Below are positions 5,706-52,947 of a stretch of DNA of 64,000 nt, piece by piece. The stretch lies in the NCBI GenBank assembly GCA_963767985.1, contig CAVYGE010000006.1, forward strand, positions 169 to 64,168, in the 5' to 3' direction. The DNA is from an uncultured Chloroflexia bacterium. GTDB lineage: Bacteria; Chloroflexota; Limnocylindria; QHBO01. The translations under genes were made by a program, and so were the position numbers. The notes under the pieces were generated by a model. That model saw only the letters and a program-made list of their open reading frames with translations, had not been told where the DNA came from and made no database searches. The first letter of the stretch is position 1; the number at the start of each line of letters is the position of its first letter.

Positions 5706-7321
5706 CCGCGACCGGAGCCGACCGCTGGCACGTGCTGGCTGCCACCGCGCTGGGCTCACGCCACGTCGCGACCGGCGCGCCGAACCAAGACGCGTTCTCG
5801 GTGGTACCGGGCGTGGGCGCCCAGGCGCAGTGCGTCGCCGCCATCGCCGACGGCCACGGCGGGGCTCGATACTTCCGCAGCGAAACGGGTGCTCGGTTGG
5901 CGGTCGACATTGCGGTCGACATCGGCGGTTCGCTCCTCGAGGCGCTCGACGCGCCCACCACCAAGAAGTCCGCGCTCGGGCTCGGAGACGCCGCCACTCG
6001 CATCGTCCAGCGATGGAGTGAAGCGGTGCGCGCCGATCTGGCTGCTCATCCCGTCGGCAACGATGAGCTGGCGGCCGCTGGCGTCGCACGCGAGGAGCAC
6101 GACGCCGACGATCTCCGCACCTACGGCGCCACCCTGCTGCTCGCCGTGATGGGTGGCGCCGGGCTTGTCCTGCTCCAGATCGGCGACGGCGACATCGTCG
6201 TCGTCGACCTGACAGGCAGGGTGACCGAGCCGGTGCCGGGCGATCCCGCGCTCGTCGCGGGTGAGACCACGTCGCTCTGCCTGCCCGACGCGGCGAGCAG
6301 CTTTCGGAGCATGGTGCTCGACACCACCGGTGGCCGGGCCCCGGTGCTCGTGCTGTTGTCCACTGACGGCTTCGGCAACTCCTACGCCGACCGGGCGGCG
6401 TTCCACTCGTTCTGCACCGGTGTGCTCGAGCGAGTCGCGGAACGTGGGGTGGCGTCGGTCGAGGCCGATCTGCCCAGCTGGATCGCAGAGAGCGCACGGG
6501 TCGCCGGCGACGACGTCACGGTGGTCGCACTGCTCGATACCGCTTCAGCACCCGCGTCCGCGAAGGCCGCGGCGCGGGCCGCGGCGGACCGCACCGTCGC
6601 GGTGCCGACAACCGCGGCGGCGCCGCCCGCGGGTGCGCCGCCGCCGAGCGCTCCTCCGCGCCAAGCGAGGGCCGCACCGTCACCCAGGGGTTCGGGCGCC
6701 GGCGCCGCACCGCCGTGGACCATCGTCGCGGTCGCCGCGATCGTCCGCGCTCTTGCTCGGGGTCGTCGTTGGGCGAGCGACGAAGAAGACAAACACGGCC
6801 GCCACCACCGCCACCACCACGCCGCCAGCGACCACAACCGCCGGGGCTGGCGCCGGCGCGACGACGGTGTGGCTGCCGACAGCACGAGGCTTGATCCAAG
6901 TCGAGCCCGGCGCCCCTCCCGCGCTCTCGTCCCCGGCTTGGCCAACGCGCCAACTGATGCCGTGACCGTGCGTGGTGCGCTCTGGCTGGCCGCCGGACGG
7001 TTGGTGTTTCCGCAGGGGCAACGGGGCGACGCGCTTGAGTTCCCGGCCACAGTCACGAGCGTCGGCACCGACGGAATCGATGTGTGGGTCGCGCTCGCCG
7101 ACGGTGGCGTCTTTCGCATCGATGCCGCCCAGCGCTGCACCAGCTACGCAGGTGCCGTCGCCGCGACCACGGTCACCACCACGACGAGCCAGCCGCCCGT
7201 GGCAACGGGAGGCCAACCCTCCGGTGGTGCGCCGTCGCAGAGCCCGAGTCCGACGACGGTGGCTCCGGCGGCAGTGGCGCCCAACGAGCAGGTGGCCGAG
7301 AACCCATGTCCGGGCAGCTGA
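5702..7321 (+). CDS. PP2C-family Ser/Thr phosphatase with Pro/Ala linker, probable TM helix and C-terminal ectodomain
   Basis: GTG 5702 overlaps the vWA stop (GTGA). Motifs NQDAF, IADGHGGARY, LLQIGDGDIV, LLSTDGFGNS, DDVTVV. A hydrophobic stretch (WTIVAVAAIV / ALLLGVVVG) is visible only if two compensating frame shifts between about 6745 and 6960 are assumed. Confidence 0.8.
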   Translation: MTATGADRWHVLAATALGSRHVATGAPNQDAFSVVPGVGAQAQCVAAIADGHGGARYFRSETGARLAVDIAVDIGGSLLEALDAPTTKKSALGLGDAATRIVQRWSEAVRADLAAHPVGNDELAAAGVAREEHDADDLRTYGATLLLAVMGGAGLVLLQIGDGDIVVVDLTGRVTEPVPGDPALVAGETTSLCLPDAASSFRSMVLDTTGGRAPVLVLLSTDGFGNSYADRAAFHSFCTGVLERVAERGVASVEADLPSWIAESARVAGDDVTVVALLDTASAPASAKAAARAAADRTVAVPTTAAAPPAGAPPPSAPPRQARAAPSPRGSGAGAAPPWTIVAVAAIVRALARGRRWASDEEDKHGRHHRHHHAASDHNRRGWRRRDDGVAADSTRLDPSRARRPSRALVPGLANAPTDAVTVRGALWLAAGRLVFPQGQRGDALEFPATVTSVGTDGIDVWVALADGGVFRIDAAQRCTSYAGAVAATTVTTTTSQPPVATGGQPSGGAPSQSPSPTTVAPAAVAPNEQVAENPCPGS

Positions 7322-7358
7322 TGCGCGATGGACAACATGAAGGCGAAGGCGAGCATTG

Positions 7359-9221
7359 ATGAGTGAGCTGCGAATCGAGCTCGGCGGCCAGCGGATCACG
7401 GTCGCGCCCGGCGCGGTGGTGACGATTGGACGCGAGCCCGACCGCGACATCCGATCCGACAACCCTGCGGTCTCGCGCCGCCACGGCGAGGTGCAGTACG
7501 ACGGCGTCAGCTGGGTGTACAGCGACGCCAACAGCACCGGTGGCACCTACCAGGGAGGACAGCGCGTCACCCGGGTCGTGCTCACCGGGCCGGCCGAGCT
7601 GTGGCTCGGCGCACCGTCGGAGCCAGGCGACCGGCTGCGCCTCGAGCCGGTAGGCGTAGGCGGCGGCGGGCGGGCCCCGCTCGATCGCACGGTCGGGCCG
7701 ACGCCCGCCGGCGACACTTCGCTGCGTCTGCGCTTCGGTGTGCACGACGGTGTCTACAGCCCGGGCCAGGTCATCACCGTTGGGCGTGCACCCGAGTGCG
7801 ATCTCACCACCGACAACCCGCTCGTATCCGGGCACCACGCTCGCATCCTGTGGTCGGGGGGCCAGTGGACGCTCGAGGATGCGGGGAGCAAGCGCGGCAC
7901 CTACGTCGGTGGGCGCAAGGTCCGCAGCACCCGTCTGGGTGGGGCCATGACCGTGTGGTTCGGGCCACCCGAGGCGGGCGAGAAGCTCACTGTCCTCACC
8001 GGGGGCGAGGCGCCGCGCACACCGGCGTCGGTTCTCCGCCCGTCGGTGGTGGCCGGTGCCGCGCTCGTGCTCGCCGCCGTGGCCGTGCTGGTGGTGGTGT
8101 TCCTCGGAGGCGGAGACGATGACGAGCTCGACGTTGCTGCGCTGCGGCGAGCCACTGTGCTGGTCTCGGAGGAGGCGAGCGACCCGACGAGCTGGGGCAG
8201 CGGCAGCATCGTGTCGGCCGATGGACTCGTGCTCACCAATGCCCACGTTGCCGCGCCGGCGGCGCCCGGCCGCGGCGTCAGCCAGCGCGAACCTGTGTCG
8301 GAGCGGAACCCGGCCCGCCTCTACATCTACGTGGTGGAGGACGAGGACGCACCGGCGCGGCCGGCGTACACGGCCAAGGTGATGGCGGCCGACGGGTACC
8401 TCGACTTCGCGGTCCTGCAGATCGACCGGACCGCGGCCGGAGATCCAGTCGACCGCAAGAAGCTCAAGCTCCCTGCGGTCAAGCTCGGTGATTCGCGCGC
8501 GCTCAAGGTCGACGAGGACCTGCTCGTTCTGGGCTTTCCTGGGATCTCGGAAACACAATCGATCAACGTCTCCCGAGGGGTGGTCTCCAGCTTCCTCGTC
8601 GATGAGCGGGTTGCCGGTCCCCGCTCATGGATCAACACCGACGCCACCATCAGCCCGGGGAACTCAGGGGGTCTGGCCGCCGATCACCGCGGTCGGCTGG
8701 TGGGCGTCCCGACCCTGGTTGTCGCCGAGCGGTCCGGAATCCCGCTGACGATCGGCCGGCTCCGGCCCATCCACCTCGCGCAGCCGGTCATCGACGCGGC
8801 CCGCCGCGGCATCGCGTACGACCAGAACAAGTGGGTCAAGCAGCCGACCGGGGACGAGAGCTTCGACTACGAGGGTGTTCTCGACACCGACGCGGAGCAG
8901 TGCGAAGACCGTGCGTTCGTCGGCTACCGCTCGGGCACGCCGGTCATCAACACCCAGCTGCGGTACTCCGGCATGACTGAGGACCAAGAGGTCTTCTTCG
9001 GATTGCACCAGGTCCGGGGCACGACCCTGGTGCTCGTCGACAGCGTCGCGGCGCGGTGGGAGGACTCTGATGCTGCGGGCTGCCTGTTGGTGGCGTTCCG
9101 CAACATCGGGACGGGCGGTGTGCAACGGCCGTTCCCCGATGGCACGTACAAGGTGCTTGTGCAGGCCGGCCCCAACTACGAGACCCAGCTCGCCGAAGGC
9201 GACGTCGACGTGGGTGGGTGA
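7359..9221 (+). CDS. FHA-FHA-TM-trypsin-like (S1, Trypsin_2-type) serine protease with extra C-terminal domain; intact ORF
   Basis: Two FHA cores (VTIGREPDRDIRSDNPAVSRRHGEV...; ITVGRAPECDLTTDNPLVSGHHARI...). TM helix VVAGAALVLAAVAVLVVVFLGG. Catalytic triad contexts LTNAHV, DFAVLQI, ISPGNSGG. About 150 aa of unassigned C-terminus. Confidence 0.85.
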   Translation: MSELRIELGGQRITVAPGAVVTIGREPDRDIRSDNPAVSRRHGEVQYDGVSWVYSDANSTGGTYQGGQRVTRVVLTGPAELWLGAPSEPGDRLRLEPVGVGGGGRAPLDRTVGPTPAGDTSLRLRFGVHDGVYSPGQVITVGRAPECDLTTDNPLVSGHHARILWSGGQWTLEDAGSKRGTYVGGRKVRSTRLGGAMTVWFGPPEAGEKLTVLTGGEAPRTPASVLRPSVVAGAALVLAAVAVLVVVFLGGGDDDELDVAALRRATVLVSEEASDPTSWGSGSIVSADGLVLTNAHVAAPAAPGRGVSQREPVSERNPARLYIYVVEDEDAPARPAYTAKVMAADGYLDFAVLQIDRTAAGDPVDRKKLKLPAVKLGDSRALKVDEDLLVLGFPGISETQSINVSRGVVSSFLVDERVAGPRSWINTDATISPGNSGGLAADHRGRLVGVPTLVVAERSGIPLTIGRLRPIHLAQPVIDAARRGIAYDQNKWVKQPTGDESFDYEGVLDTDAEQCEDRAFVGYRSGTPVINTQLRYSGMTEDQEVFFGLHQVRGTTLVLVDSVAARWEDSDAAGCLLVAFRNIGTGGVQRPFPDGTYKVLVQAGPNYETQLAEGDVDVGG

Positions 9222-10556
9222 CGAACGCCATGTTGCAGGAGGGTGCCGACGTCCAGCTTCTCGGATGGGGCACGAACGCGTCGATCACGAGGTGGCTGGG
9301 CGAGGGCAGCGAGGGGACTGTCTGGGAGGTCGAGGTGGGCGGCGCCGCCGAACCGCTCGCGCTCAAGTGGTATCACCCCGAGCGGGCTACGCCGCTCAAG
9401 CACCGCACGATTGAGCTGCTCATCGAGCGGGGGAACCCACACGAGCGATTTCTGTGGCCGCTCGATCTCGCGACCAGCCGGTTGAGCCCGGAGTTCGGGT
9501 ATGTCATGCCGCTGCGCGCCCCTCAGTACAAGGGTCTCGTCGAGCTGATGTGGCGCGACCGGGACGAGATCAAGCAGGTGACGTTCGCGTCGCTGGCCAC
9601 CCTTGGGCTCGAGCTGGCGCATGCGTTCCTGCTCCTACACAACCAGGGCCTCTGCTACCGCGACATCAGCTTCGGCAACGTGTTCTTCGACCCCGCCACC
9701 GGGTCGACCCTCGTCTGCGACAACGACAACGTCGGCATCAACGGCAGCAGCGACTCCGACGTGGCCGGCACGTTCCGGTTCATGGCACCGGAGATCGTGC
9801 GTGACCGCAACGTGGTGCCGAGCACCGAGACCGACCTGCACTCGCTCGCGGTGCTGCTGTTCCACGTGTTCATGGTCCACCATCCCTTGGAGGGCAAGCA
9901 GGCGCTGCAGTATCCCGTGCTCGACGAGATCGCCATGGAACAGCTCTTCGGGCGGAAGCCAGTGTTCGTCTGGGATCCCGACGACCGCAGCAACGAGCCG
10001 GTCCCCGGTCTGCACGACAACGCCATTCGGTACTGGGGCATCTACCCGCAGTTCCTGCCGCGATCGGTTCACCGAGGCGTTCACCGTCGGACTGCACGAC
10101 CCGGGGAACGGGCGGGTCCGCGACGGCCAGTGGCGGGCGGAGATGGCCCGCCTGCGCGACGCGATCGTTCGGTGCCAGGCATGCGGCGCCGAGGCGTTCT
10201 ACGACGACGCCTCGGCGAAGCCGCTGACGTGCTGGGTCTGCTTCAAGCCGATCCGCCTGCCCCCATTGCTGCGCATCGGCGATCGGGCGCTCATGCTCAA
10301 CGCGGGCACGCGCGTCTACAGCCACCACCTCAGACTCGACTACGACTTCACCACCGCGATCGCCGATGTGGTCGAGAAGCCCGACGCACCCGGCACCTGG
10401 GGTCTGCGCAACCTCGGACGCGACGCATGGTCGGCGGACGTCGGCGACCGCAAGGCGTTGCCCATCGCCCCAGGCCGGGCCGTGCAGATCGGGCCGCGGA
10501 CTCGCGTGTCGTTCGGGCCCGTGCGGGGCCGCTTCGAGTTCCCCGGCACAAGCTGA
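9218..10556 (+). CDS. atypical protein kinase-like protein with Zn-ribbon and FHA-like C-terminus (one frame break near 10050)
   Basis: GTG 9218 overlaps the protease stop (GTGA). Motifs LGEGSEGTVWEV, ALKWY, YRDISFGNVFF (HRD to YRD), VCDNDNV (DFG to DND), FMAPE. After the frame switch: CQACG..x..CWVC, then LRIGDRALMLNAGTRVYSHH...WGLRNLGRDAW. Confidence 0.7.
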
Positions 10557-10587
10557 CCCGACGCCGCTAGACGTCGGCGGCCGCGGC

Positions 10588-11733
10588 TCACTTTTCGAAG
10601 CCGCCAGACGTGTTCCACAAGTCGAAGACGATGTTCTTGTTGCCGTCTTTGCGGAACGCCACGATCGTGATGTTTGGGTCATCGAGTGTGAACACGAGCC
10701 ACGCGCCGGCGGCGTTGCCGTGCACGAGCCGCCGGCCGATCGGACGCCCGGGGTCGGACGTGAAGATCCAGTCCCGCTCGCACGAGGTCGTGCGGCACGT
10801 GTCGTTCGATCCAGTGTTGAACGGTACGCCGCTCTGTTGGACGCGGGCGGTGTAGTCCGCGGACTGGGCGCCGTCGCTGCCGAACTTGTAGAGCCATGCG
10901 GTGGTGTAGGCCTCGGCGGTGCAGCTGATGGCGCCGTTCGCCCCGGTCGGGAGCGCAGTCTCCTGCATGCACCTGGGGAACCGGGGCGGGTCGCCGACAA
11001 CGTGGTTGAGGAGCTCTTGCTCGACAACGGACGGGTTCCAGCTCGGGCGGGGTGCGGCGGTGGTGCGGGTCGTGGTGGTGGTGCGCGATGTGCTGGTGGT
11101 GTCGACCACGGGGGTGGTCGTGTCCGTCGCGATCTCGGGATCGGGACCGAGGATCGCGTACGCGATCACGCCGATGGCGACCAGACTGAGCACGGCGAGG
11201 GCCGCGAGCAACCCGACGGGGCGGCGAGGCGGGGGCTCGTCTGGTTGGCGTTGCTGGCCCCAGTCGCCACCCCAGTGACCCGGCTGCTCCGGCGGGCGCG
11301 GTTGCTGAGGCGGTGGGACCTGAGTCGAGCCGACCCCGCCGTCCGGCGGTCCCTGCGGTCCTCGCGGCCGTTGCCCCGGCCCCGGGCCCGGTGGCGGCCC
11401 GGGGCGCGGTGGTGAAGCCGCCGCACTGCCAAGGGCGACGGCCCACGTGCGCACGGCCCAGTCGGCCATGTCGGCGCTGAGTCCGCGTTGCTGCACCAGG
11501 CGCGCCGTGAGCTGCTCGATGCGGGGCCCGATCGGTGTCGATGAGCGCATGAGCTCGCCTGGCACCTGCTCTTCGACGGCGCCGAGGAGGACGGCGACGT
11601 GGGGCCCGCCCTCGGGCCACACGTCGCGGAACAGCGCGGCGCAGCGGCGAGGGTCGTCAGCGAGCCCGGCGCCGTACTGGGCGAGCAGCTCGCGTAGCGT
11701 CGCGGCAGCCTGAGCGGGATCGGTCGGCGGCAT
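10588..11733 (-). CDS. membrane protein, paralogue 1: conserved cytoplasmic head, Pro-rich linker, TM, Thr-rich stalk, 4-Cys ectodomain
   Basis: Intact 381-aa ORF. ATLRELLAQYGAGLADDPRRCAALFRDVWPEGGPHVAVLLGAVEE...; TM GLLAALAVLSLVAIGVIAYAIL; ectodomain with 4 Cys. Confidence 0.7.
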   Translation of the reverse strand: MPPTDPAQAAATLRELLAQYGAGLADDPRRCAALFRDVWPEGGPHVAVLLGAVEEQVPGELMRSSTPIGPRIEQLTARLVQQRGLSADMADWAVRTWAVALGSAAASPPRPGPPPGPGPGQRPRGPQGPPDGGVGSTQVPPPQQPRPPEQPGHWGGDWGQQRQPDEPPPRRPVGLLAALAVLSLVAIGVIAYAILGPDPEIATDTTTPVVDTTSTSRTTTTTRTTAAPRPSWNPSVVEQELLNHVVGDPPRFPRCMQETALPTGANGAISCTAEAYTTAWLYKFGSDGAQSADYTARVQQSGVPFNTGSNDTCRTTSCERDWIFTSDPGRPIGRRLVHGNAAGAWLVFTLDDPNITIVAFRKDGNKNIVFDLWNTSGGFEK

Positions 11734-11764
11734 GATCAGCCCGTGTTCGTGCGGGTCGCGATGT

Positions 11765-12898
11765 TCACTTCGTGAACGTTCCGTTCAAGAACCACATGTC
11801 GTAGACGATCTGCTTGTTCCCGTCGTTGCGAAACGCGACGATCGTGATGTTGAGGTTGTCGAGTGTGAGGACCAGCCACGTGCCCGTGGCATCCCCGTGG
11901 ATCAGTCGTCGCCCGATCGTCACCTGCTGGCCGCCGTGGCGCCAAGGCCCTTCGCATCCCGACCGAGTGCATGCCTCGTTGCCGACGCCATAGTCGCGCG
12001 GCAGTCCACTCTGCTCAACGCGCGCCGTGTAGTCGGCCGCGTGGAGATCATCGCCACCGAACTTGTAGAGCCAGGCGCGCGTATAGGTCGGCGAGGTGCA
12101 CGTGATGGCAGCGGTGGCACCAGTTGGCACTCCTGGTGCGCGCTTGCACGCCGGAGACTGAGGTGGATTGCCGACTACGTGGGCCAGCAGCTCGTTCTCG
12201 TCTTGAGTCCACACGGGCGCTGCCGGTGGTTTGACGACGGTGGTGGTCGTACTCGTGCTCGTGGTCGTGGTCGGATCGAACGGCTCAGTGGTCGTGTCGG
12301 TCGCGACCTCTGGATCCTTGCCACCGAACGTCGCGAACGCGATCACGCCGATGGCGATGAGACCGAGCGCAGTGAGGGCCACGATCAAGCCAACGGGGTG
12401 TTTGGGCTGCCGATCGACGGGCCGGCGCTCTGGCGGCCACTCGCCGCCCCAGTGCCCGGGTTGCTGTGGCTGGCGAGGTGCCTGCGGCGGTGGAACCTGC
12501 GTCGACGCGACCCCACCGGCCGGTGGTCCCTGGGGCCCAGGAGGGCGTTGCCCCGGCCCCGGTAGCGGCCCGGGGCGCGGTGGCGCCGGTGCCGCGCGGC
12601 CGAGGGCGACGGCCCACGTGCGCACGGCCCAGTCGGCCATGTCGGTGCTGAGCCCGCGTTGTTGGGCCAGACGCGCCGCCAGCTGCTCGATGCGGGGTCC
12701 GATCGGCGTCGACGAGCGCATGAGGTCGCCGGGGACTTGCTCCTCGACGGCCCCGAGCAGCACGGCCACGTGCGGCCCGCCTTCGGGCCACACGTCGCGG
12801 AACAGCGCGGCGCAACGTCGAGGATCGTCGGCCAGTTCCGCGCCGTACTGCGCGAGCAGCTCGCGCAAAGTCGCGGCGGGATCGGTGGGGGGCGGCAT
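11765..12898 (-). CDS. membrane protein, paralogue 2 (tandem duplicate of 10588-11733)
   Basis: ATG at 12898 chosen by alignment with paralogue 1 (MPPPTDPAATLRELLAQYGAELADDPRRCAALF...). Same domain order and the same 4 Cys positions. Confidence 0.7.
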   Translation of the reverse strand: MPPPTDPAATLRELLAQYGAELADDPRRCAALFRDVWPEGGPHVAVLLGAVEEQVPGDLMRSSTPIGPRIEQLAARLAQQRGLSTDMADWAVRTWAVALGRAAPAPPRPGPLPGPGQRPPGPQGPPAGGVASTQVPPPQAPRQPQQPGHWGGEWPPERRPVDRQPKHPVGLIVALTALGLIAIGVIAFATFGGKDPEVATDTTTEPFDPTTTTSTSTTTTVVKPPAAPVWTQDENELLAHVVGNPPQSPACKRAPGVPTGATAAITCTSPTYTRAWLYKFGGDDLHAADYTARVEQSGLPRDYGVGNEACTRSGCEGPWRHGGQQVTIGRRLIHGDATGTWLVLTLDNLNITIVAFRNDGNKQIVYDMWFLNGTFTK

Positions 12899-13027
12899 CA
12901 ACGCACCGGCCGACGCGACGGCGGCCGTCTCAGGATGCGCGTCAACCCGACCCTCCCATGGTGGTCCGCCTTCCGCCACGCGGATCGATCACCGCCCGGC
13001 GCTTCCCCAATGAAAGACGCTATCGGG

Positions 13028-14017
13028 CTAGGCGTGAACGTGTTGTGTCCAGCAGTGCAGATGCACGAAGCGGCCACAGACGTCGCACCGCTGCACGGTG
13101 GCGAGCATCGGTTCGCGGCAGACCGGGCAACCGGTGTCGACCTCCTCATGGCTGCCGCCGCCACCGAGGGGGATGGTGGGCGCGGCCGCAAGGGTCGCAG
13201 GCTCGTCGAGCGGGCGACCGAGGAGCGGCGCGAGCACCGTCAGGGCGGCGGCGGCGAACGCGTCGAGGTTCGACAGCTCGGGGTGCTGGCCGAAGTTCTC
13301 GTGGAGCCCACTCGGCGCGAAGAGGCAGAAGTAGAGGTCGTCGTGGCTGTCAGGCATGCCCTCGAGCGCGGCGATGGCAACGATCTGCCCTTGGTCGTAT
13401 GCGACGCCAAGCGCGCTGTAGCTGATTGGCCCATCGGCAACGGGAGCGGTCCAGATCTCGACCCACGAACGAGCCGGCAAGGCCGGGGCATCGTCCGCCT
13501 CGATGGTGTCGACGATTCGCCAGCTGCGCAGGCGCGGCGTGGCACCGCTGGTCGCGGCTCTGGTCGCGACGTAGGCCTGGAACGGGCCGTGCTGGGCGGC
13601 CTGCGTGCGGCCCGAGTCGATACCGGCGCGTGCGTCGGCGCGACGGCGCAGGACTGACTCTGTCTGGGCCCGCACGAGCGTGGGCCACCCCTCTGGTCGC
13701 GAAGGCATCGGACCGAACCGGCTGGTTGCGCCATCGTCGGTGTACAGCTCGGTGAAGCTGTCGCGGTCGCGCGTGTTCCGCGATGCACAGCGTCGACCAG
13801 CGGCCATCGGGGTTGACCAGCGCCCACCCGTCGGTGAACCGGCCGGATGGTTCCACGATCTCGCCGAGCACCAGCACGTGCTCCCCTGGATCGGTGAGGC
13901 CGGGGTGCTCGAAGCGCTCGACGACGCGAAGGGCAGACACCCCCACGTCGGCGTTCCGGGCCCGCAACGCCGCGAGCTCCGGCGGAGGTTCGGAGGACTT
14001 GCGGCGGAGAAAGCTCA
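13028..14017 (-). CDS. hypothetical protein with C-terminal Cys/His zinc-finger-like motif (one frame break near 13770)
   Basis: Probable GTG at about 14017 (VSFLRRKSSEPPPELAAL...). C-terminus ..GCPVCREPMLATVQRCDVCGRFVHLHCWTQHVHA. I do not recognise a family. Confidence 0.45.
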
Positions 14018-14029
14018 CTCGGGGGAACG

Positions 14030-14470
14030 CTACGCGTCGCCGCGCTTCCCGGCGAAGAACTCGGTGAGCAGCGCCGCCGCCTCGTCGGCTCGGACGCCGG
14101 CCGTGATCGGCACCTCGTGGTTGAGCCGCGGGTCGGCGCACAGGTTGTAGAGCGAGCCGCACGCCCCGGCCCGGAGGTCGGCGGCGCCGAACACCAGGCG
14201 CCCCACCCGCGCGGCGAGGAGGGCGCCGGCGCACATGGCGCAGGGCTCGAGCGTGACGACCAGGGTTGCCCTGACGAGCCGCCATCCGTCGCCTATGACG
14301 GCCACGGCATCTCGCATGGCCAGGATCTCGGCGTGGGCGGTCGGATCGCCCGTTCGCTCGCGCTCGTTGTGGCGACGGGCGACGACCTGCCCGTCGACCA
14401 GCACCACCGCCCCGATGGGCACGTCGTCGTGGTCGAGGGCGGCGGTGGCTTCCTCGAGTGCTAGCGCCAT
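14030..14470 (-). CDS. tadA: tRNA-specific adenosine deaminase
   Basis: 146 aa from ATG 14470. Deaminase zinc motifs HAEILAM and TLEPCAMCAGAL, with the conserved GAADLRAGACGS. Confidence 0.9.
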   Translation of the reverse strand: MALALEEATAALDHDDVPIGAVVLVDGQVVARRHNERERTGDPTAHAEILAMRDAVAVIGDGWRLVRATLVVTLEPCAMCAGALLAARVGRLVFGAADLRAGACGSLYNLCADPRLNHEVPITAGVRADEAAALLTEFFAGKRGDA

Positions 14471-17158: not shown

Positions 17159-17815
17159 CTATGCGGGCTCGGTGGCCTCGCAGCCGTCCCCGAACTCGCC
17201 GTTGGCATCACTGAACCCCGGATTGCACATGAGGACCCACACACCGGCCTGGCACGTCGCCCAACCGTTCGGAACAGTCGGAGGAACGAGTTCTTCGTCG
17301 ACCAAGCCGTCGGCGTCGTTGTCGACGTTGTCGCATTCCTCGGGGCCGGTGAAGGGCACGGGACCGTACTCGCATCCGTCGGCGACGATGCCGTTGAGGT
17401 CCCAGTAATTCACGTTGCAGGCCAATAGATGGACCTCGCCGGTGAACAGGTCGCACCCTGCCGTGCCGTTCGGAATCAGCGGAGGCGTCTCGTACAGGCC
17501 ATCGCCGTCGGCGTCCGTGCACTCGAACAGCGCAGCCTCGGAGTCGTCCTCGCGGGACGTGCAATCGGGGTCGCCGCCGCTGCGCTTGTAGTCGACGAGA
17601 CCGTCGCCGTCGTTGTCGATCCGGTCAGCGCATGCCGGCTTCGGCTTCGGCTTCGGCGCCGCGGCAGCCGGCCCTGCAGATGCCACCAGCAGCCCACCGA
17701 GCACCACCGTGACGACCGCCAGACTGCCCAGGACGCGCCCAGCCCGCGTACCGTGGAGCGAGGAGGTTGGCTGCGCGAGGGAACCGCCGAACCGCCGCAA
17801 GTGCAACACCGCCAT
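17159..17815 (-). CDS. secreted Cys-rich protein with repeated Dx[DN]xDG metal-binding-type motifs
   Basis: Signal-like LGSLAVVTVVLGGLLVASAGPAAAAP. Repeats CADRIDNDGDGLVDY, CTDADGDGLYE, CDNVDNDADGLVDE, and NYWDLNG..DGCE / FSDANGEFGDGCE. Confidence 0.6.
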   Translation of the reverse strand: MAVLHLRRFGGSLAQPTSSLHGTRAGRVLGSLAVVTVVLGGLLVASAGPAAAAPKPKPKPACADRIDNDGDGLVDYKRSGGDPDCTSREDDSEAALFECTDADGDGLYETPPLIPNGTAGCDLFTGEVHLLACNVNYWDLNGIVADGCEYGPVPFTGPEECDNVDNDADGLVDEELVPPTVPNGWATCQAGVWVLMCNPGFSDANGEFGDGCEATEPA

Positions 17816-18104: not shown

Positions 18105-18230
18105 GCCGGCTCGTGCGGCGGCCGGGTCCTGCGCAACGGGACGCCGTGAACCGAGTCAGGGCCGGAAGGCAGCAGCTCTCAGCGGATAGTCCTGTGTGCC
18201 GCAGTCAGCCTGGCCGCCGCACCGGCCGGC
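18105..18230 (+). ncRNA. ffs: signal recognition particle RNA (small bacterial SRP / 4.5S-type)
   Basis: Long hairpin: 5' GCCGGCTCGTGCGGCGGCCGGG pairs with 3' CCTGGCCGCCGCACCGGCCGGC. Conserved domain IV string GUCAGGGCCGGAAGGCAGCAGC. Sits between tRNA-Ser and dnaX, the usual position. Ends are approximate. Confidence 0.75.
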
Positions 18231-18254
18231 TCCGCTTCGTACTTGTCGGGGCCC

Positions 18255-19943
18255 GTGCGAGCCTGGCCTACCAGTCGCTCTACCGGCGCTACCGGCCGCA
18301 ACGGTTCGCCGACGTTCGTGGGCCAGGACCACGTCACCGTCCGCCATCCGCAACGCCGTGCGCGACGAGCGGGTCGGCCACGCCTACCTGTTCAGCGGCC
18401 CGCGGGGCACGGGCAAGACGTCGACGGCCCGCATCCTCGCCAAGGCCCTCAACTGCACCGACCCTCGCTGACGGCGAGCCGTGCGGCACGTGCGAGTCGT
18501 GCGTGCAGATCACCGCCGGCGTCGTCGATGGACGTCTTCGAGCTGGATGCCGCGTCGAACAACGGCGTGGGGGAGATGCGCGACGCTGCTCGAAAAGGTT
18601 GTCCTCGGGACACCCGGGCGCGGCGCAAGGTGTACATCGTCGACGAGGTCCACATGCTCAGCCCGGGCGCCGGGAACGCCTTGCTGAAGACCCTCGAGGA
18701 GCCGCCCGACCACGTCGTGTTCGTTCTGGCCACCACCGACCCGCACAAGGTGCCGGCCACGGTCCGCAGCCGCACCCAGCACTACGACTTCCTGCTGGTA
18801 CCGCCCGATGCCTTGCGGACCCACCTCGAGTGGGTGGCGGCCGACGCCAAGCTCGGGCTGGCGCCCGAGGCCGTCGAGCGGGCGGTGGTCAGGGGGAACG
18901 GCTCCGTGCGCGACGCGCTCGTCGGCACTCGACCAGATCGCGGCGGGCAGTGGTGCGGTCGACCTCGAAGACGCCGGCCCCGATGCCGTTGTCGCCGCGC
19001 TGTGCGCGAGCGCGACGCCAACGCGGTCCTCGTCGCAGTGGCCGAGGCGGTCGGACGGGGCACGGATCCCCGGTTGCTCGCCCGCGCCGTCGTGGACGAG
19101 ATGCGATCGCTGTTCCTTGCGCTGCTCGCCCCCGAGCTCGTGGTGGTTGCCGACGCCGAGCGGGCGAAGCTCGCCGAGCAGGCGAAGCGGCTGGGCACCC
19201 CCGCGGCAGTGCGTGCCATCGAGATGCTCGGCACCGCGCTGGTCGACATGCGCGACGCCGTCGACCCGCGCGTCTGCCTCGAGGCCGCGCTCGTGCGCCT
19301 GGCTCGGCCGGAGCTGGATCCGACGCCGGAGGCGCTGCTCGATCGCCTCGAACGTCTCGAGCGTCGGGTGGCCGACGGCGCGCCGGCCGCGAGCACGGCG
19401 TCCCCCGCCGTTCCGGACCCGCCGCGCCGTACGGCCGCACCCGCGCCACCACCGGCGCCGCCGGCACGCAAGGCCGCCCCCGCGCCGCCGCCCAAGCCGC
19501 CCACGAAGGCCGCCGCGAGCAGTGCGGCCGCCACCGAGACCGCATCGACGGCACCGGCGTCCGGGGCATCACTGCCAAGCCGCTGACGAGCTGGCGCTGG
19601 CATGGGGCGACGCCGTGCGCGACAAGCTGCCCGCCGCGCGAGGTCGCGCACCGGCGCGGGGCGGTGGGTCGGCGTGGCCGACGGCGCCGCCATCTTCGGA
19701 CTCCAGAACGCCATCCATCGCGACAAGTGCGAGGAGGTCCGCGCCGACGTCGAGAAGGCGCTTACCGACCACTTCGGCGCACCCATACCGGTGCGCATGG
19801 TGGTCGACAGCGGCGCGGCCGCGTCCGACCCCGACGAGCCCGCCGACGACACCGTCGACCTCACTGAGCTGCGCGATGCGCCAGGGGTAGGCTCGGCCGA
19901 GGCGTACGTGCTGCACACCTTCCCCGGCGCCACCGAGGAGTAG
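18255..19943 (+). CDS. dnaX: DNA polymerase III subunit gamma/tau (at least 6 frame breaks)
   Basis: Fragments across three frames: [123 protein letters not shown]-terminus ..[13 protein letters not shown]. Start is approximate. Confidence 0.85.
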
Positions 19944-19954
19944 GAGCTCACCCC

Positions 19955-20297
19955 GTGTCGAATCAGCCCGATCTGAGCGGCCTCCTGAAGCAGGCGCAGC
20001 AGATGCAGGAGCAGCTGCACGAGCGTGCAGGCCGCGGCCGCGGCGGCCGTCGTCGAGGGGCACTCCGGTGGTGGCGCGGTGCGCGTCGAGGTGTCCGGCA
20101 CGATGGAGTTCCGCGCCGTGCACATCGACCCGAAGGTCGTCGACCCCGACGATGTGGAGATGCTCGAAGACCTCGTCCTCGCCGCGCTGCACGATGCCAC
20201 CGCAAAGGTGCACGAGCTGTCGGCGCAGGCAATGCCCGACCTCGGTGGTCTGGGCGACCTGGGGGGCCTCGGCGGCCTCCTCGGTTCGCCAGGGTGA
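19955..20297 (+). CDS. ybaB: YbaB/EbfC-family nucleoid-associated protein (one frame break)
   Basis: GTG 19955. [21 protein letters not shown], then (shifted) ..[50 protein letters not shown]. Confidence 0.85.
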
Positions 20298-20919
20298 CGG
20301 GCTACGCCGGTCCCGTCCAGGATCTGGTCGACGAGCTCGGGCGGCTCCCCGGCATCGGCCCGAAGTCTGCGCAGCGCATCGCCTTTCACCTGCTGAAGCT
20401 CTCGCGCGACGACGCGCTGCGGCTGGCACACAGCATCACCGAGGCCAAGGACCGCGTGACGTTCTGCACGCGGTGCTTCAACGTGGCCGAGGGTGCCGCG
20501 GGCGAAGCCGAGTGCATGATCTGTCGCGACGACCGGCGCGACGCCACCACCGTCTGCGTCGTCGAGGAGCCGCGCGACATCGTTGCCGTCGAGCGCACCA
20601 ACGAGTTCCGCGGTCGCTACCACGTCCTCCTCGGTGCCATCAGCCCCATCGAGGGCATCGGCCCCGACCAGCTGAAGGTGCGCGAGCTGATCGCCCGGCT
20701 CGAACCCGAGGGCGTGCAAGAGGTGATCCTCTGCACCAACCCCAACATCGAGGGGGAGGCGACGGCGATGTATCTGGCGCGCTTGCTCGACCGCTCGGCC
20801 TCCGGGTCACGCGCATCGCATCCGGACTGCCCGTCGGCGGCGACCTGGAGTACGCCGACGAGCTCACGCTCGGGCGGGCCCTCGAAGGCCGGCGCGACGT
20901 GGAGGCGGGTCAGAGCTAG
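20294..20919 (+). CDS. recR: recombination protein RecR (one frame break near 20790)
   Basis: GTG 20294 overlaps the ybaB stop (GTGA). [20 protein letters not shown], Zn finger [15 protein letters not shown], Toprim [16 protein letters not shown], shifted C-terminus [27 protein letters not shown]. Confidence 0.9.
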
Positions 20920-20920: not shown

Positions 20921-22231
20921 TCAGCTCGCGCTCCACTTGTTGCACTTGGCCTGGAGCGCCCCGGGGAACACGTCCTTACCCCAGCGCTCGCCGATCTTCT
21001 CGAACGGCGTGAAGTCGTCGTGCAGCACCTTGCCGGTGACCTTGTCCTTGATGACCTGGACCTTCATCCCGCCACCCATCACGTCGCCATGTTCCTCGGG
21101 GGTGTCCCCGTAGCAGATCATGCTGTTCCCGTCGCAGTGCGAGTGATGGACGCCGACGGCGTGCCCAAACTCGTGCGCGGCCGGCGCTTGCTTTGATTCG
21201 AGCGGTATCGGGTTCCCCTTGGCGTCCTTCTGGCGGTTTCCGGCGTACTGCTGCGTCGGGTTGGGCGAGAGGTGCGCTCCATCGGCATCGAGCCTCATCT
21301 GCCGTTCCTTCGTCCGTCTGTCCTCGCTCACTTCGCCGGCGCGATGTTTTCCGCTGTTCAGCATGATCGGCATGTGCTCGCCGCCGTCGACGTAGAGGAC
21401 CGTCACCTTGGTGCGGAACGGCTGCACCTTGAGGCCCGGGCAGGCGGGCTGCACCGTGCCCTTGCCCGACCACGTCGACTCGACGATCTGCTTGAACTCC
21501 GACTTGAACTTCGTGACCTCGTCGGGGGTTGGCAAGTCGTCCTCCTGGAGCGCGATGCGCGTCTTGAAGATCAGCGAGATCAGGCCGGACGTGGGCTCGA
21601 TGAATGCGTCGAAGCGTCCCTCGAACTGATCGCGCTCGTACGTCTTGACGTCCGCCGGCGCGCCAACGAAGCGCATGACATCGCCGATCTGATCGATCGG
21701 CAGGCCGCCGAGCTCGCCGGCGTTGGCCGCGGCAAACCCCTTCCAGTCGCCCTTCATCGCCACCGCGTTCATGGCGACCACCAGGCGGGGCCCGCCGACG
21801 AAGCCCCCGGCTTCGCGATCCGTGCGGGCCGCGGCCGGCTCCAGCGTGGCGAGGGCCGGAAGCAGGGCGTACATCGGGAGACCCTGGATCTCGCCAAGCG
21901 GCTTCTCGTTGTCCTTGTTGCGCTGCAGTGCCGTGCGTTGCGCCACGCCGACTGGCGTCGGTGCCGCCGGGTCGGCTTGCTCACGGGGCTCTCCGCCGCA
22001 GGCGCATGATCCACGGCACGCGCACGTCCGCTGCAACGCCGCGGTCACGGCGGCGTTGCCGGCGAAGCGCTGTAAGACGGCGAGGTGCCCGGCGCGGTTG
22101 GCGATGTTGCCCCGCCCGAGTAGCCCAACCGCGGTTGCCGTGCTCGGCGCCGACGACTCGGTTGTCGCGCTCGGCGTCGATGCCGGCGCCGGCGATTCGC
22201 GCGCCGGGGCCGGGGCCACCGTCTCCGCCAT
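20921..22231 (-). CDS. metzincin-like zinc peptidase with N-terminal LQR/AGNAAV motif region; intact, no signal peptide
   Basis: 436-aa [23 protein letters not shown], Cys cluster [11 protein letters not shown]-terminal [11 protein letters not shown] (fits HExxHxxGxxH) followed by [12 protein letters not shown]. Confidence 0.6.
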
Positions 22232-22326
22232 CGTCCGAATCTACGGACGGGACGAATCAGCGCCCAGGGCCGAGTGGGCGTACGTCAGGGCAGCCGGCGC
22301 TACCCAAAGGGGCGGGGCGCAGTGGT

Positions 22327-23505
22327 CTAGAGGGTGCGCAGGATGATGGCGTCGCCCTGGCCGCCACCGCCGCACAGGGCGGCGGCGCCGGTGCCGCCGC
22401 CGCGGCGGCGCAGCTCGTGGATGAGCGTGAGCGCGACACGGGTGCCCGACATGCCGACCGGGTGGCCAAGGGCGATGGCGCCGCCGTTGACGTTGACGAT
22501 GTCGTCGGTGATGCCGAGGTCGGCCATCGACGCCAGACCCACAGCCGCGAACGCCTCGTTCAGCTCGAACAGGTCGATGTCGCTGACCGCCTTGCTGACC
22601 TTGCCAAGCGCGGCCTTGATGGCGCGCGACGGCTGCGTGAGCAGCGAGGGATCGGGTCCCGCCACCTGGCCGTAGGAGATGATCTCGGCAATCGGCTCGA
22701 GCCCAAGTGCGTCGGCCTTCGTGCGGGAGGTGACGATGACCGCGGCGCCGCCGTCGGAGATCTGGCTGGCGTTGCCTGCGGTGATCGTGCCCTCCTTGTC
22801 GAAGGCCGGGCGCAGCCCGCCGAGGCTCTCAGTGGTCGTGCCAGGACGCACGCCCTCGTCGGTGTCGACGATGAGCGGGTCGCCCTTGCGCTGGGGCACG
22901 TCGACCGCGGCGATCTCGTCGGCGAAGCGGCCCTCCTTGATGGCGGCGGCGGCCCGCTCGTGTGACTTGGCCGCGGCATCGTCCTGGGCGTCGCGGGCGA
23001 TCTTGTGGTCGGCGTAGCGCTCGGTGGCCAGGCCCATCGAGGTCTTGTCGAACGCGCAGGTGAGGCCGTCGTACATCATCGAGTCGACTACCACGCCGTC
23101 GCCGATCTTGAGGCCGGCGCGGGCGTTTGGCAGCAGGTATGGCGCGTTGGTCATCGACTCCATGCCGCCGGCCACGACGACCTCAGCCTCACCCGAGCCG
23201 ATCATCTGGTCGGCCAGGAAGATGCTGTTGAGCCCAGAGAGGCACACCTTGTTGACCGTGGTGGCCGGAACCGACATCGGGATGCCCGCGGCCTTGGCCG
23301 CCTGGCGGGCGGTGATCTGCCCCTGACCGGCCTGCAGCACGTGGCCCATGAACACGTAGTCGACGTCCTCGGGGCTTACGCCCGCTCGCTCGAGCGCAGC
23401 CTTGATCGCGACGCCGCCCAGGTCCATGGCGCTGAACGACGTGAATGCGCCGGAGAGCTTGCCGATCGGGGTGCGAGCACCGGCGACGATGACGGATCCA
23501 GCCAT
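22327..23505 (-). CDS. acetyl-CoA C-acetyltransferase (thiolase II); intact
   Basis: RBS AGGAGG lies 9 nt before ATG 23505. MAGSVIVAGARTPIGKLSG..., active-site contexts VNKVCLSGL, ..NGGAIALGHPVGMSG.., ..ALCGGGGQG... Confidence 0.9.
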   Translation of the reverse strand: MAGSVIVAGARTPIGKLSGAFTSFSAMDLGGVAIKAALERAGVSPEDVDYVFMGHVLQAGQGQITARQAAKAAGIPMSVPATTVNKVCLSGLNSIFLADQMIGSGEAEVVVAGGMESMTNAPYLLPNARAGLKIGDGVVVDSMMYDGLTCAFDKTSMGLATERYADHKIARDAQDDAAAKSHERAAAAIKEGRFADEIAAVDVPQRKGDPLIVDTDEGVRPGTTTESLGGLRPAFDKEGTITAGNASQISDGGAAVIVTSRTKADALGLEPIAEIISYGQVAGPDPSLLTQPSRAIKAALGKVSKAVSDIDLFELNEAFAAVGLASMADLGITDDIVNVNGGAIALGHPVGMSGTRVALTLIHELRRRGGGTGAAALCGGGGQGDAIILRTL

Positions 23506-23591
23506 GCCTGGGCCTCCTGGAGTTGGCAGCGAGCGAGCGCGACCAGTGTACGGCGCGGCTGCGGTGGACTCTCCGGGCGACCCCGTCGGCG

Positions 23592-25745
23592 TCAGCGGCG
23601 GGCGCTGCTGACCACGCGCCGGAGGTTCCCTACCAGGCCCTGCAGGCTGACCGGGCCGACGGCGACCAGGTCGTCGATCTCGATGTGGGTCATCGTCGAG
23701 AGCGCCAGCCGGCCGCCTACGAGCAGCGCCGTGGTGATCGGCGCGGCGTGCAGTTCGAGCCACTGCCGCGTGGCCGGCGTCTCGCCGAGCGAGCGGCGGC
23801 CCGCGAGCAGGAGGGGGTGGCGCAGGCTGCCGGCGACGAGCGCGTCCGGGAACGTCTCGCCCTGCGTGACGGTGATGACGGCGTCGGTGTAGCGACTGCG
23901 GCCGATGCCCCAGTCGGCCACGCGCACCGCGGTCGTAGCGGTCGGCCCCGGCCAGGCGCTCGGCCGCAGGAAGGACGTCGGGGCGCACGGCGACGGGGCC
24001 GCCCACCACGACGGGGGTGGCGGAGCCGATGGCGGCGCGGGTCACCTCGGGCAGGGCCTCGCGGGTGGTGAGCAGCACCGGCAGGCCCAGCGCGCCGGCG
24101 GCCAGCGCGTCGGGGAACGCCTCGCCGGACGCAACCAGCACCGTCCCCGTCCCGTCGCCGCCCGCGACATCGGCGAGCCGGCGGGCGACGCGCGCCGCGG
24201 TGTCGTAGCGGTCGGCACCGGCGATGCGGTCGAGCTGCAGGTTCAGCGCACTGACGGCGTCGGCCACCGCCGGGCCAAGGGCGAGCGTCCCGCCGAGCAG
24301 CACCACCTTGGTGGTGCCAAGCCGAGCCAGCTCGGCGACCACCCGGACATCAAGCGCGTTCGGCCCGGTGAGCAGCACCGGCGCGCCGAGCGATGCGGCC
24401 AGCGGACCTCCCACGAGCGCGTCGGCGAAGCCGGCGCTGGTGGCGAGCACCACGGTGGTGGCGGTGGTGAGCTCGTGGGCCACCGCGATCGCGGTCTCGA
24501 TGCGGTCGATGCCCGCGAGCCGGCGGGTGCCGCGGGGCACGAAGTCGAAGAACACGCCGACGGCGTCGCCCAGCGTGGCCTGCACGCCCGGCACGCGGGC
24601 GGAGTCTTCGCCGCTTGGCACGTTCTCGATGCGGCCGTCGACGGACATCGCGGTAGAGCCGCCGCCGTCGAGGGAGATGGCGTCGGTCGCGCCAAGCTCG
24701 ATCATGAGCGCGGCCAGGCTGGCGAGCGTCGCGCCGTCGACCGACCGGGCTGGCGGCCGTCGATGGTGACCAGCAGGGCCCGGCCGTCACCGGTGAGGCC
24801 GACCGCGGTGCGCGGCGCCTTCATGTCGAGGTGGGTCGGGCTGAACCCCTCGGCCAGCATCGCCTCTCGTCCGACCGGGTTGCTGTCGTGGACCAGCCAG
24901 GGTCCACCGCCTCCCGCCTCGATGGCCGCGGCGAACCCGGCGTCGTCGATGTCGATGTGCATCTGCACGTCGTCGCCAACGGCCAGGCGGCTGCTCAGGT
25001 CGGCGGCGTTGTTCCCGGTAGCCGTGAGCACGGCGCTGCCGACGGGGATCGAACCCGGCCCGGTGCGCACCTCGGTGACCGTGCCGTCGAGCGGTGTATC
25101 GGCGTGGACCTCGTCGATGCCGGCGACCACGACGTCGACGCCGGTGGCCGGGGTGCGGGTGGCCGGCCCGAACTGCGGGGTGACCACCACGGTCTCGTCG
25201 GGGTTTCCGAGGTAGCCCAGCACCCGATCGAGGCCGTTCAGGCCGAACGCGTCGGGGCCCCGCATGAGCGACAGCGTCGACCGGGGGCGGCCGAACGCCA
25301 GCGAGTCGCCGTCGACCCGCCATGCGGCCCGGGGCGTGCCCGCGGCCCCGACCGCGGCCTCTGGCTCGCTGCGGAGCACGCCGTCGCGTACCGCGATGCC
25401 GTGCACATTGCCGCTCGACGCGAAGAAGTTGCCGTTGACTGCGGCGAGCGCGTCCGACCGCAGCACGAGGTCGGTCACGGTGCGACGGCTGGCGCCGTGG
25501 TCGGCGGCGAGGATGGGTCGGAGCGATAGGCGGGGGTCGTCGAGCCGGAAGCGCAGCAGCCGTACCTCTTGGCGGTCGGTGCCGACGGTGCGGGCGAACG
25601 ACACCAGCTCGACGCCCGGCGCGACGAGGCGGCTGGTGGCGCCGGCCGGCTCCGCCCCGGCCGCCGGCGACAGCGCGGCGGAGGACGCGGCCAACGTCAC
25701 GAGGAGGGTGGCGACCGCGATCGTCGGCAGTGTCCGGCGGCGCAC
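23592..25745 (-). CDS. secreted phosphodiester glycosidase (DUF2233/NAGPA-like) fused to three cell-wall-binding-repeat-2-like modules (frame breaks)
   Basis: Signal peptide MRRRTLPTIAVATLLVTLAASSAALSPAAGA. AVNGNFF, ..RTAVGLTGDGRALLVTIDGRQ.., ..AISLDGGGSTAM... Then three repeats of the type RIAGADRYDTA..VA......TVVLASGEAFPDALAGGPLA...PVLLT. Confidence 0.7.
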
Positions 25746-46285: not shown

Positions 46286-46480
46286 TCAGCGCGGCACCGG
46301 TGCGACTGCGGTGCTGTCGAGCCAGCGGCGGTAGAGCTGGGCGTAGGTGCGGTCGTGCGCGCGAGCAGGTCGCGGTGCGTGCCGACCTCGACCAGGCGTC
46401 CGCGTTCGAGCACCGCGACCACGTCGGCTCGTTCGGCCGTGGCCAGCCGATGGGCGATCGTGACCGTCGTTCGCCCGGCG
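46286..46480 (-). pseudogene. C-terminal remnant (about 65 aa) of an ABC exporter ATPase
   Basis: [50 protein letters not shown]... Walker A/B and signature motifs are absent, and there is no upstream coding in frame. Confidence 0.65.
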
Positions 46481-46490
46481 CGCACGCCCC

Positions 46491-47048
46491 GGTGTAGAGG
46501 GCCAGCTTGCCGATCGGGATCGCCATCCCGCCGGCGCCCAGGTCGCCGAGCCCCAGGATCCGCTCGTTGTCGGTGACCACGATGAGCCGCACGTCGTCGA
46601 ACGGGCCGTTGCGCAGGATCTCGCCGATGCGGTCGCGGTCGTGCGGCGTGATCCATGCTCCCCGCGTGCGCCTCAGGACGTGGCTGAACTCCTGGCAGGC
46701 GAGGCCGACGGTCGGCGTGTAGACGATCGGGAGGAGCTCCTCCAGGTTCTCGGCCAGCACGCGGTAGAAGAGCGTGGCATTCCGATCCTGGAGGGCCGCC
46801 AGGCCGATGTACTGCTCGAGCGGATCATCCTTGCGTCGCAGGCGCGTGAGCTCGAGCTCGACCTGTTCCTCGATGCTCATGACCCGGTCCGGAAGGAGCC
46901 CCCGGAGGTCGAACGCCTCGCGCTCATCGGCGCTGAAGGCGAAATCCTTGGTGAGGAGGCGATTGCTCAACAGGGTCGTCCCACTCAAGGCGACGTCGGC
47001 CGGACGGCCGGCAACGATGGCATCAAAGGGTGCTGGCAGGGGTCGCAT
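46491..47048 (-). pseudogene. N-terminal remnant (about 186 aa) of an NAD(P)-malic enzyme
   Basis: ..[93 protein letters not shown], then the reading abruptly becomes the ABC fragment. Confidence 0.7.
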
Positions 47049-47100
47049 CGGGTCCGAGGATAGTCACCTCGTGCCGTGTCTCGCGCGGCATACTGGGCCC

Positions 47101-52882: not shown

Positions 52883-52947
52883 GTGGCATCCACGCACTGT
52901 TGCCTGATGGATCGGCGCATGTGGCGCGCACACGGGTGAATAGGGGT

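Follow-up and report, generated by a model that had tools for sequence, protein, structure and literature searches.

A signal-less, modular metzincin-like protein encoded between recR and a thiolase gene as a putative cargo of contractile injection systems

The cargo proteins of extracellular contractile injection systems (eCIS) have been described as having a loading sequence at the N-terminus that is disordered, an optional DUF4157 domain and a variable C-terminal domain (bioRxiv 10.64898/2026.05.27.728243). For the AlgoCIS particle it has been reported that the N-terminal region is needed for loading, that DUF4157 is dispensable and that the cargo of one system share their N-terminal region (bioRxiv 10.64898/2026.05.27.728243). 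The PVC-type polymorphic toxins include members with peptidase toxin ends and often have no immunity gene (PMC3482391; PMC8213781), and most of the published eCIS toxins are encoded within ten genes of the operon (PMC11297309). Here we describe P0001, a protein encoded in a 64,000-nt stretch of metagenomic DNA (the window; positions 169 to 64,168 of contig CAVYGE010000006.1, assembly GCA_963767985.1, deposited as an uncultured Chloroflexia bacterium), where its gene lies between recR and a gene for a thiolase (Table 1). We read P0001 as an effector, or cargo, of the contractile injection system (CIS) type that is encoded away from any machine, and put the probability of this reading at about 0.6.

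The family of P0001 was assembled from a word-based search of 5.8 billion proteins, which returned 38 relatives, and from an exhaustive search of 1.84 billion representatives, which returned 149. P0001 aligns end to end with homologs from several phyla at 40-62% identity. In the exhaustive search, residues ~100-195 and ~195-435 of P0001 were each found to recur alone in other proteins, and since both module A and the protease domain occur independently of one another we consider the protein to be modular. When 10 of the proteins that have module A only were scanned against Pfam, nine were found to have eCIS_core (PF13699, formerly DUF4157) directly upstream of the module, while the C-terminal ends of the scanned proteins were varied and included RNAse_A_bac (a CdiA-type RNase A), HNH, Peptidase_M15_4 and unknown domains. 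As predicted from these domain matches, the architecture of the module-A proteins is the one that Zhang et al. 2012 (PMC3482391) set out for polymorphic toxins of the PVC type.

The part of P0001 that precedes module A resembles that of known cargo in its general character. The first residues differ in sequence and in length among the homologs in our alignment, and the full-length structural model of P0001 has a predicted local distance difference test score (pLDDT) of 35-50 over residues 1-40; it is from pLDDT and amino-acid composition together that disorder was read, and by these two measures P0001 has the disordered, hydrophilic N-terminal leader of eCIS cargo. The leader helix that follows has a second LQR at residues 66-68 and is kept in most of the homologs, with G58 and N59 invariant in alignment A3. 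Among 182 relatives of P0001, LQRxxGNxA is present in 45 and the DUF4157 signature in 53, with both present in three; in many of the 182, DUF4157 is fused directly to the HEFGH protease. Because the two elements are near-exclusive among these relatives, the LQR leader and DUF4157 are, as judged from the sequences, largely interchangeable before the same downstream modules. The Cys cluster beyond the helix was found in only a subset of the homologs, where it has the form C-x2-3-G-C-x-C (alignment A1, columns 440-480).

A sequence-only reading of this DNA, made before our analysis, had proposed that the LQR/GN motif is tied to DUF4157-class proteins with links to CIS. The 182 relatives bear this out, as do the eCIS_core proteins of three loci. 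In two Nocardioides eCIS loci, the eCIS_core protein encoded just upstream of the sheath gene has LQRAAGNAAT ~30 aa ahead of its DUF4157 domain, and LQQLVGNQAV occurs in the eCIS_core protein of the locus that we refer to as L042. The motif is also rarely matched elsewhere: a stricter LQR regular expression, run over the fetched loci, matched only P0001 homologs and DUF4157 proteins, and a loose expression, run over the six-frame translation of the 2.7-Mb genome bin to which the window is assigned, gave P0001 as the only true LQRxxGNxA match, the one other match being a collagen-like repeat that is different from the LQR motif. A literature search under several spellings found no paper that names the LQRxxGNxA motif.

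The association with CIS is most direct in locus L042, where the homolog P0016 (49% identical to P0001) lies within an eCIS operon. The genes of this operon are, in order, those for a BTAD regulator, an AAA ATPase, the cargo, a DUF922 protein, eCIS_core, PAAR, Pvc16_N, the sheath and the tube, the locus ending at the tube gene. Four consecutive cargo-like genes of L042, P0016 among them, share a leader ending in IGRLQGNxHLQR. By the measure of about ten genes from an eCIS operon, P0016 lies close to a machine and P0001, in the window, does not. In addition, a full eCIS locus was identified in Nocardioides sp. CPCC 206347, a genome that carries a homolog; this locus encodes Pvc16_N, eCIS_core, the sheath, two tube proteins, a VgrG-like spike, Baseplate_J and Tail_P2_I.

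Two further observations were made on the cargo-like genes of L042. Across positions 7302-14140 of that locus (JGI 3300038380 contig), the shared leader is ~100 aa long and has the pattern LAGLxQLxxGPL...QRxxxxxxIGxLQGNxHLQR, and the gene at 10408-12705 ends in a different HExxH zinc-protease motif, AAHEAGHMFGLGDEY. The four leaders form a good natural set for defining the loading signal.

The C-terminal domain of P0001 is modelled with high confidence, as pLDDT exceeds 85 for residues 105-436 in the full-length model and is 94.3 in a model of the protease domain only, for which the predicted template modelling score (pTM) is 0.91. The order of secondary-structure elements in the domain model (beta, helix A, beta-sheet, active-site helix, Met and C-terminal helix) fits that of a metzincin. 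Foldseek searches of the PDB with the full-length and domain models gave top 50 matches that were all catalytic domains of matrix metalloproteinases (MMPs) or karilysin, with best E values of 1.4e-3 and 5.4e-4 and probabilities up to 1.00, but with TM scores of only 0.3-0.43 (at most 0.41 with the domain model) and a root-mean-square deviation (rmsd) of ~10 Å. At the sequence level, P0001 has the metzincin zinc consensus HExxHxxGxxH/D. Across 27-37 homologs there is no variation at H353, E354, H357, H363, M385 or G386, and G360 is nearly invariant. Similarly, the family profile found only metzincins in the PDB, doing so through the zinc motif, which it aligned with that of MMP-2. M385 is situated in D-x-M-G-G-G, 22 residues past the third His, and its assignment to a Met-turn was made from sequence.

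No family in Pfam, NCBIfam, PHROGs or PADLOC covers P0001. Its sole family match is to Peptidase_M10 (PF00413), which scores 16.8 bits where the cut-off is 24 bits and extends over residues 351-374 only, that is, the zinc motif. The same weak match was obtained for all 27 aligned members of the family, none of them above the cut-off, and 15-18 of the 27 matched Reprolysin_3, _4 or _5. These profile matches, along with the MMP and karilysin matches from Foldseek, support the earlier suggestion of a metzincin-like protease. The accompanying suggestion of a resemblance to snapalysin (family M7) found no support, and we rejected membership of that family, as none of the 27 members matched PF02031 at E <= 0.1 and the third zinc ligand is a His (His363) instead of an Asp. 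From sequence and models, then, the protease domain of P0001 probably represents an active, divergent and uncatalogued metzincin-like family.

How far the occurrence of the family follows that of CIS was estimated from sheath genes. Every one of the eight homolog-bearing species genomes has Phage_sheath_1 (PF04984); two are from Nocardioides, one each from Nakamurella, Planotetraspora and the cyanobacteria Scytolyngbya and Elainella, and two are Actinomycetota metagenome-assembled genomes (MAGs). In a sample of 150 further genomes from the class to which the Nocardioides genome belongs, 21 have it (Fisher's exact p = 5e-7), although the eight genomes are phylogenetically non-independent, the controls come from one class only and PF04984 also detects the sheaths of myovirus prophages. 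These limits weigh against P0001 being a CIS cargo, and so do several other results. Among the homolog-bearing genomes, a complete eCIS locus was verified in Nocardioides CPCC 206347 only, and 12 of the 13 homolog contexts examined contained no CIS structural gene within the available flanks (up to 10 kb). P0001 itself gave no match to PF13699 at E <= 1, although this domain is present in five of the 27 aligned homologs, and the fold match of its protease domain is a distant one, as indicated by the TM and rmsd values. Finally, the CIS genes that were looked for (sheath, eCIS_core and all of the Nocardioides eCIS proteins) are absent from the whole bin. On the last point, the results from the bin on CIS and on the absence of the gene say nothing of the true host, because the segment that carries the P0001 gene appears to be foreign to the bin (see below); the bin as a test of the host's CIS was rejected on this ground. 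The window also has no CIS gene, as had been noted before. The P0001 family is mostly encoded in trans to CIS.

The gene itself appears sound. Its open reading frame (ORF) on the minus strand is open over 436 codons plus a stop, and the LQR/AGNAAV, CxCxxxCxC and HExxHxxGxxH motifs are all present in the translation, in agreement with the sequence-only reading. That reading had also found no signal peptide, and by eye residues 1-60, which are rich in Ala, Pro, Ser and Thr, have neither a hydrophobic h-region nor a twin-arginine motif. The GC content at third codon positions (GC3) is 0.885 and at second positions (GC2) 0.495, the same as in the neighbouring genes, which by codon-position GC argues strongly for a real, host-adapted coding sequence; the lower total GC of the gene was attributed to amino-acid content. 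Compared with the neighbours, codon usage (GC3) gave no sign of recent transfer. The spacer upstream, with its TAGATT in positions 22232-22250, may hold the gene's own promoter for a leaderless mRNA of a kind that is common in Actinomycetota, to judge from its sequence; scans for consensus promoters and terminators around the gene found nothing. An origin from a phage or a defence system was considered and rejected, as there were no PHROGs or PADLOC matches and nothing in a BFVD fold search.

An alternative to a CIS cargo is that P0001 is a stand-alone, latent zinc protease that acts independently of any machine, with the leader, the Cys cluster and module A serving as an inhibitory pro-region. 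The enzyme would act in the producer or after lysis, and a cysteine of the CxCxxxCxC cluster could, for instance, cap the zinc. MMPs, the nearest structural relatives of the P0001 protease, use a cysteine switch in the pro-domain, and this counts in favour of such a protease, as do the position of the Cys cluster upstream of the protease domain, the fact that the gene stands alone amid housekeeping genes in the window, as homologs do in most of their contexts, and the codon usage, which is that of the host segment and so does not indicate a recent arrival. However, the Cys cluster is missing in many homologs, the leader and module A are shared with nuclease and other non-protease toxins and thus do not form a pro-domain specific to proteases, and the family strictly co-occurs with sheath genes (8/8 genomes). 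We therefore regard a stand-alone latent protease as improbable, although it deserves to be kept in mind.

Two other explanations appear more remote. P0001 could be the substrate of another leaderless export route, such as the type VII secretion system (T7SS, or ESX) of Actinomycetota, and the lack of a Sec or Tat signal, the helical N-terminal half and the actinobacterial type of the host segment would all fit with this. Yet no WXG100, LXG or other T7SS Pfam match was obtained for P0001 or the 27 homologs, and a T7SS substrate was rejected as a candidate since there is no WXG or LXG domain; moreover, the N-terminal modules are shared with DUF4157/eCIS proteins and not with T7SS substrates. 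Homologs also occur in the cyanobacteria Scytolyngbya and Elainella, and to our knowledge cyanobacteria have no ESX systems. We rate export of this kind as very unlikely. It seems at least as unlikely that P0001 has no function at present and is a decaying remnant or an artefact of assembly. There are many single-base frameshifts nearby (in dnaX, recR and the NAGPA/CW_binding_2 gene) and the contig looks chimeric, but the P0001 ORF is intact over 1311 nt, aligns with its homologs from end to end, has invariant catalytic residues and has a GC3 of coding type, so that we give this possibility very little credence. The interpretation of P0001 as a CIS cargo encoded in trans is the one that we retain.

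The setting of the gene was compared with that in true relatives of the segment, which were found through the thiolase. The best matches of the thiolase are 91% and 89% identical, and its named matches (77-81%) are Acidimicrobiales or Acidimicrobiia MAGs. In the window, the recR stop codon ends at 20919 and the P0001 stop codon occupies 20921-20923, leaving 1 nt between the two genes. The closest contig, whose thiolase is 91% identical, has the thiolase gene and recR side by side, with a 60-nt gap and no gene between them, whereas in a more distant relative (thiolase 82%) the gap contains a gene for an unrelated, predicted membrane protein of 413 aa. In a third genome recR and the thiolase gene are again adjacent and a P0001 homolog is found 8 kb away, beside rplM. 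The window has no flanking gene in common with any of the eight species genomes in which homologs occur. Since the gap is empty in the closest relative and holds another gene in another relative, the thiolase-recR gap is, on this comparison of sequences, a variable slot and a recurrent landing place, with the P0001 gene an accessory gene there. The earlier remark that the gene between recR and the thiolase looks like an insertion is supported to the extent that the gene occupies a variable slot. What had been missed is that the surrounding housekeeping region is an Acidimicrobiia-like fragment at one end of a contig from the bin of another organism. The 413-aa protein of the second relative (L038, 11243-12484, on a contig of GCA_046128665.1) has no Pfam family.

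That fragment takes up the first ~46 kb of the contig (C6) and contains the P0001 gene together with second copies of dnaX, ybaB and recR. The bin has two dnaX-ybaB-recR loci, one in the window and one on contig C3. The RecR of C3 is 87-95% identical to that of 13 same-genus genomes, its matches being MAGs of mixed labels, including Limnocylindrales, with none from Actinomycetota, while the RecR of the window is only 55-58% identical. The gene order of the window (ADH_zinc, glyoxalase, NAGPA/CW_binding_2, thiolase, recR, ybaB, dnaX) is that of Acidimicrobiia-type contigs. Supporting a foreign origin is the fact that positions 12-32 kb of the window match the same-genus genomes weakly, at 65-76% nucleotide identity within conserved genes, whereas the part from 46,481 on shows synteny with these genomes at 77-88% nucleotide identity. 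At the junction (~46,480) a truncated malic-enzyme gene abuts the last ~45 codons of a gene for an ABC ATPase. From these comparisons it seems quite likely that the ~46-kb segment is an Acidimicrobiia-type fragment that was mis-joined to the contig of a Limnocylindria-type bin, the alternative being a real large insertion. Genome-level statements on the P0001 gene drawn from the bin would be wrong with such a contig, and a comparison with genus and class relatives of the bin, in which the gene was absent in 60 of 60, was rejected because of the same foreign segment and replaced by that with the thiolase-based relatives.

Table 1. Features of the P0001 gene, its product and its surroundings (positions are those of the window; residues are those of P0001).
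Feature	Residues	Position	Strand	Remarks
Whole P0001 gene		20921..22231	-	Modular, signal-less, metzincin-like putative CIS-type cargo protein
Leader	1-45	22097..22231	-	Rich in Ala, Pro, Ser and Thr; predicted to be disordered
Leader helix core, LQRFAGNAAV	53-62 (L53 to V62)	22046..22075	-	Modelled helix covers residues 43-70
CxCxxxCxC cluster, C70-x-C72-xxx-C76-x-C78	70-78	21998..22024	-	Optional; in a low-confidence region of the model
Module A	105-195	21647..21919	-	Helical, ~90 aa; IQGxxMxxLLPxL...GGPRL...LPxDQIGD; no Pfam family; pLDDT 86-97
Metzincin-like zinc endopeptidase domain (predicted)	196-436	20924..21646	-	No coverage by a Pfam or NCBIfam family
Zinc-binding/catalytic motif HExxHxxGxxH	353-363	21143..21175	-	H353, E354, F355, G356, H357 and H363 invariant
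Candidate Met-turn, DVMGGG	383-388	21068..21085	-	M385, G386 and G388 invariant
Spacer upstream of the P0001 gene		22232..22326	-	95 nt; TAGATT, 6 nt, then ATG; no clear Shine-Dalgarno sequence
recR		20297..20919	+	Convergent with the P0001 gene; 1-nt frameshift near 20775 (GACCG for expected GACCCG)
Acetyl-CoA acetyltransferase (thiolase)		22327..23505	-	Upstream on the same strand; stop codon begins at 22327, 95 nt upstream of the P0001 ATG
Junction		46470..46490 (contig C6 ~46,650)	.	Acidimicrobiia-like sequence to the left, genus-typical sequence of the bin to the right

Several other features of this assembly were noted. The Acidimicrobiia-like segment also carries a signal recognition particle (SRP) RNA and a tRNA-Ser. 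Single-base frameshifts occur in dnaX (18113-19600), which is spread over three frames within ~400 nt, and in the NAGPA/CW_binding_2 gene (23560-25745), and the reading frame of the CW_binding_2 gene continues into that of the thiolase. By their sequence, these frameshifts have the appearance of indel errors from long reads; such errors may also account for the bin's completeness estimate of 84%. Near-duplicates at 89-96% nucleotide identity were found between the whole of contig C7 and C6:338,095-370,164, and between C5:430,010-431,890 and positions 46,481-47,437 and 52,942-53,024 of the window; they suggest that strains or species are mixed within the bin, beyond the junction described above. 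In the window itself, the gene at 43076-43777 (plus strand) encodes a collagen-like protein with long Gly-X-Y runs (GATGATGATG...) followed by a C-terminal globular part of ~110 aa. A 218-aa protein encoded at 17159-17815 (minus strand) probably carries a signal or anchor sequence; it also has a Lys-Pro repeat, and its two Cys-rich repeats contain calcium-binding-like motifs of the DNDGDGLVDY type. Two adjacent paralogous genes occupy 10591-13069 and are ~65% identical in protein sequence and 81% identical over 597 nt of DNA.

If P0001 is a CIS cargo, we would expect it to be made in the cytoplasm, having neither a Sec nor a Tat signal, and to be recognised there through its disordered leader, the amphipathic LQRxAGNxAV helix and module A. 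The loading apparatus would consist of a Pvc15-like AAA+ ATPase together with the tube or spike, all encoded elsewhere, and these parts of P0001 would do what in characterised cargo is done by the N-terminal region, be DUF4157 present or not. The C-terminal domain would be the warhead, with the zinc bound by His353, His357 and His363, Glu354 acting as general base and Met385 in the Met-turn, and would cleave proteins in the receiving cell or, if the Streptomyces cytoplasmic-CIS model were to apply, in the producer itself. The loading of P0001, its proteolytic activity, its target and the existence of a CIS in the true, Acidimicrobiia-type host are inferred. No partner or immunity gene adjoins the P0001 gene, which gives no clue to the target.

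These expectations have wider consequences. If the cargo reading is true, an uncatalogued metzincin-like warhead and an equally uncatalogued adaptor module join the payload repertoire of injection systems, and payloads are encoded far from the machine, in variable slots, where searches restricted to the operons miss them. The leader motif would then be a candidate cargo-recognition signal of actinobacterial and cyanobacterial CIS. A bolder proposal, which we put forward tentatively and hold to be somewhat doubtful, is that the LQ(R)xxGNxA(V) helix, alone or together with module A, is a portable tag of CIS cargo across phyla that is recognised in trans and either replaces DUF4157 or lies upstream of it. 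If such a tag exists, sequence alone would suffice to find orphan cargo genes scattered between housekeeping genes throughout a genome, and foreign proteins could be brought into CIS particles by means of the tag.

The known proteases to which P0001 can be compared are snapalysin and the matrixins. Snapalysin (MEROPS M7), to which P0001 had been likened, is a small actinobacterial metzincin; its third zinc ligand is Asp and that of P0001 is His, while its Gly-rich Met-turn is, we presume, similar to that of P0001. The likeness to the matrixins and karilysin (MEROPS M10, PF00413) is closer, as the zinc motif of P0001 is almost identical to that of the MMPs, an invariant Met follows downstream, the order of secondary structure is the same and all of the best structural matches come from this family. 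Unlike the matrixins, however, P0001 falls below the Pfam cut-off, aligns by sequence over a motif of only ~24 residues, has a larger sheet, has its third His and its Met separated by a 21-residue spacer in which C-x6-C-Y-G is conserved, and has neither an MMP-type pro-domain nor a hemopexin domain.

With regard to delivery, the closest described proteins are the eCIS and PVC-type toxins (PMC3482391; PMC8213781; PMC11297309), which like P0001 are signal-less and combine a disordered leader with a swappable C-terminal enzymatic domain. Peptidase ends are a known class among them and the immunity gene is often missing, as it is next to the P0001 gene. Further links are that relatives of P0001 carry DUF4157 and share module A, and that one homolog is situated in an eCIS operon. 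P0001 differs from these toxins in that it has no DUF4157 and lies away from CIS genes, and its protease and module A are in no catalogued family. The AlgoCIS cargo Cgo1 and Cgo2 of Algoriphagus machipongonensis (PMC8894135; bioRxiv 10.64898/2026.05.27.728243), likened to P0001 by architecture, have the same three-part plan of an N-terminal loading region, a middle domain and a variable C-terminal domain, and the sharing of an N-terminal region within one system is also seen in the four cargo genes of L042. In contrast to the AlgoCIS study, which reports that loading sequences are not conserved between systems, the leader motif of P0001 is conserved across phyla. P0001 thus apparently belongs to the known CIS-type polymorphic cargo, to which it adds uncatalogued modules and a conserved, apparently undescribed leader motif.

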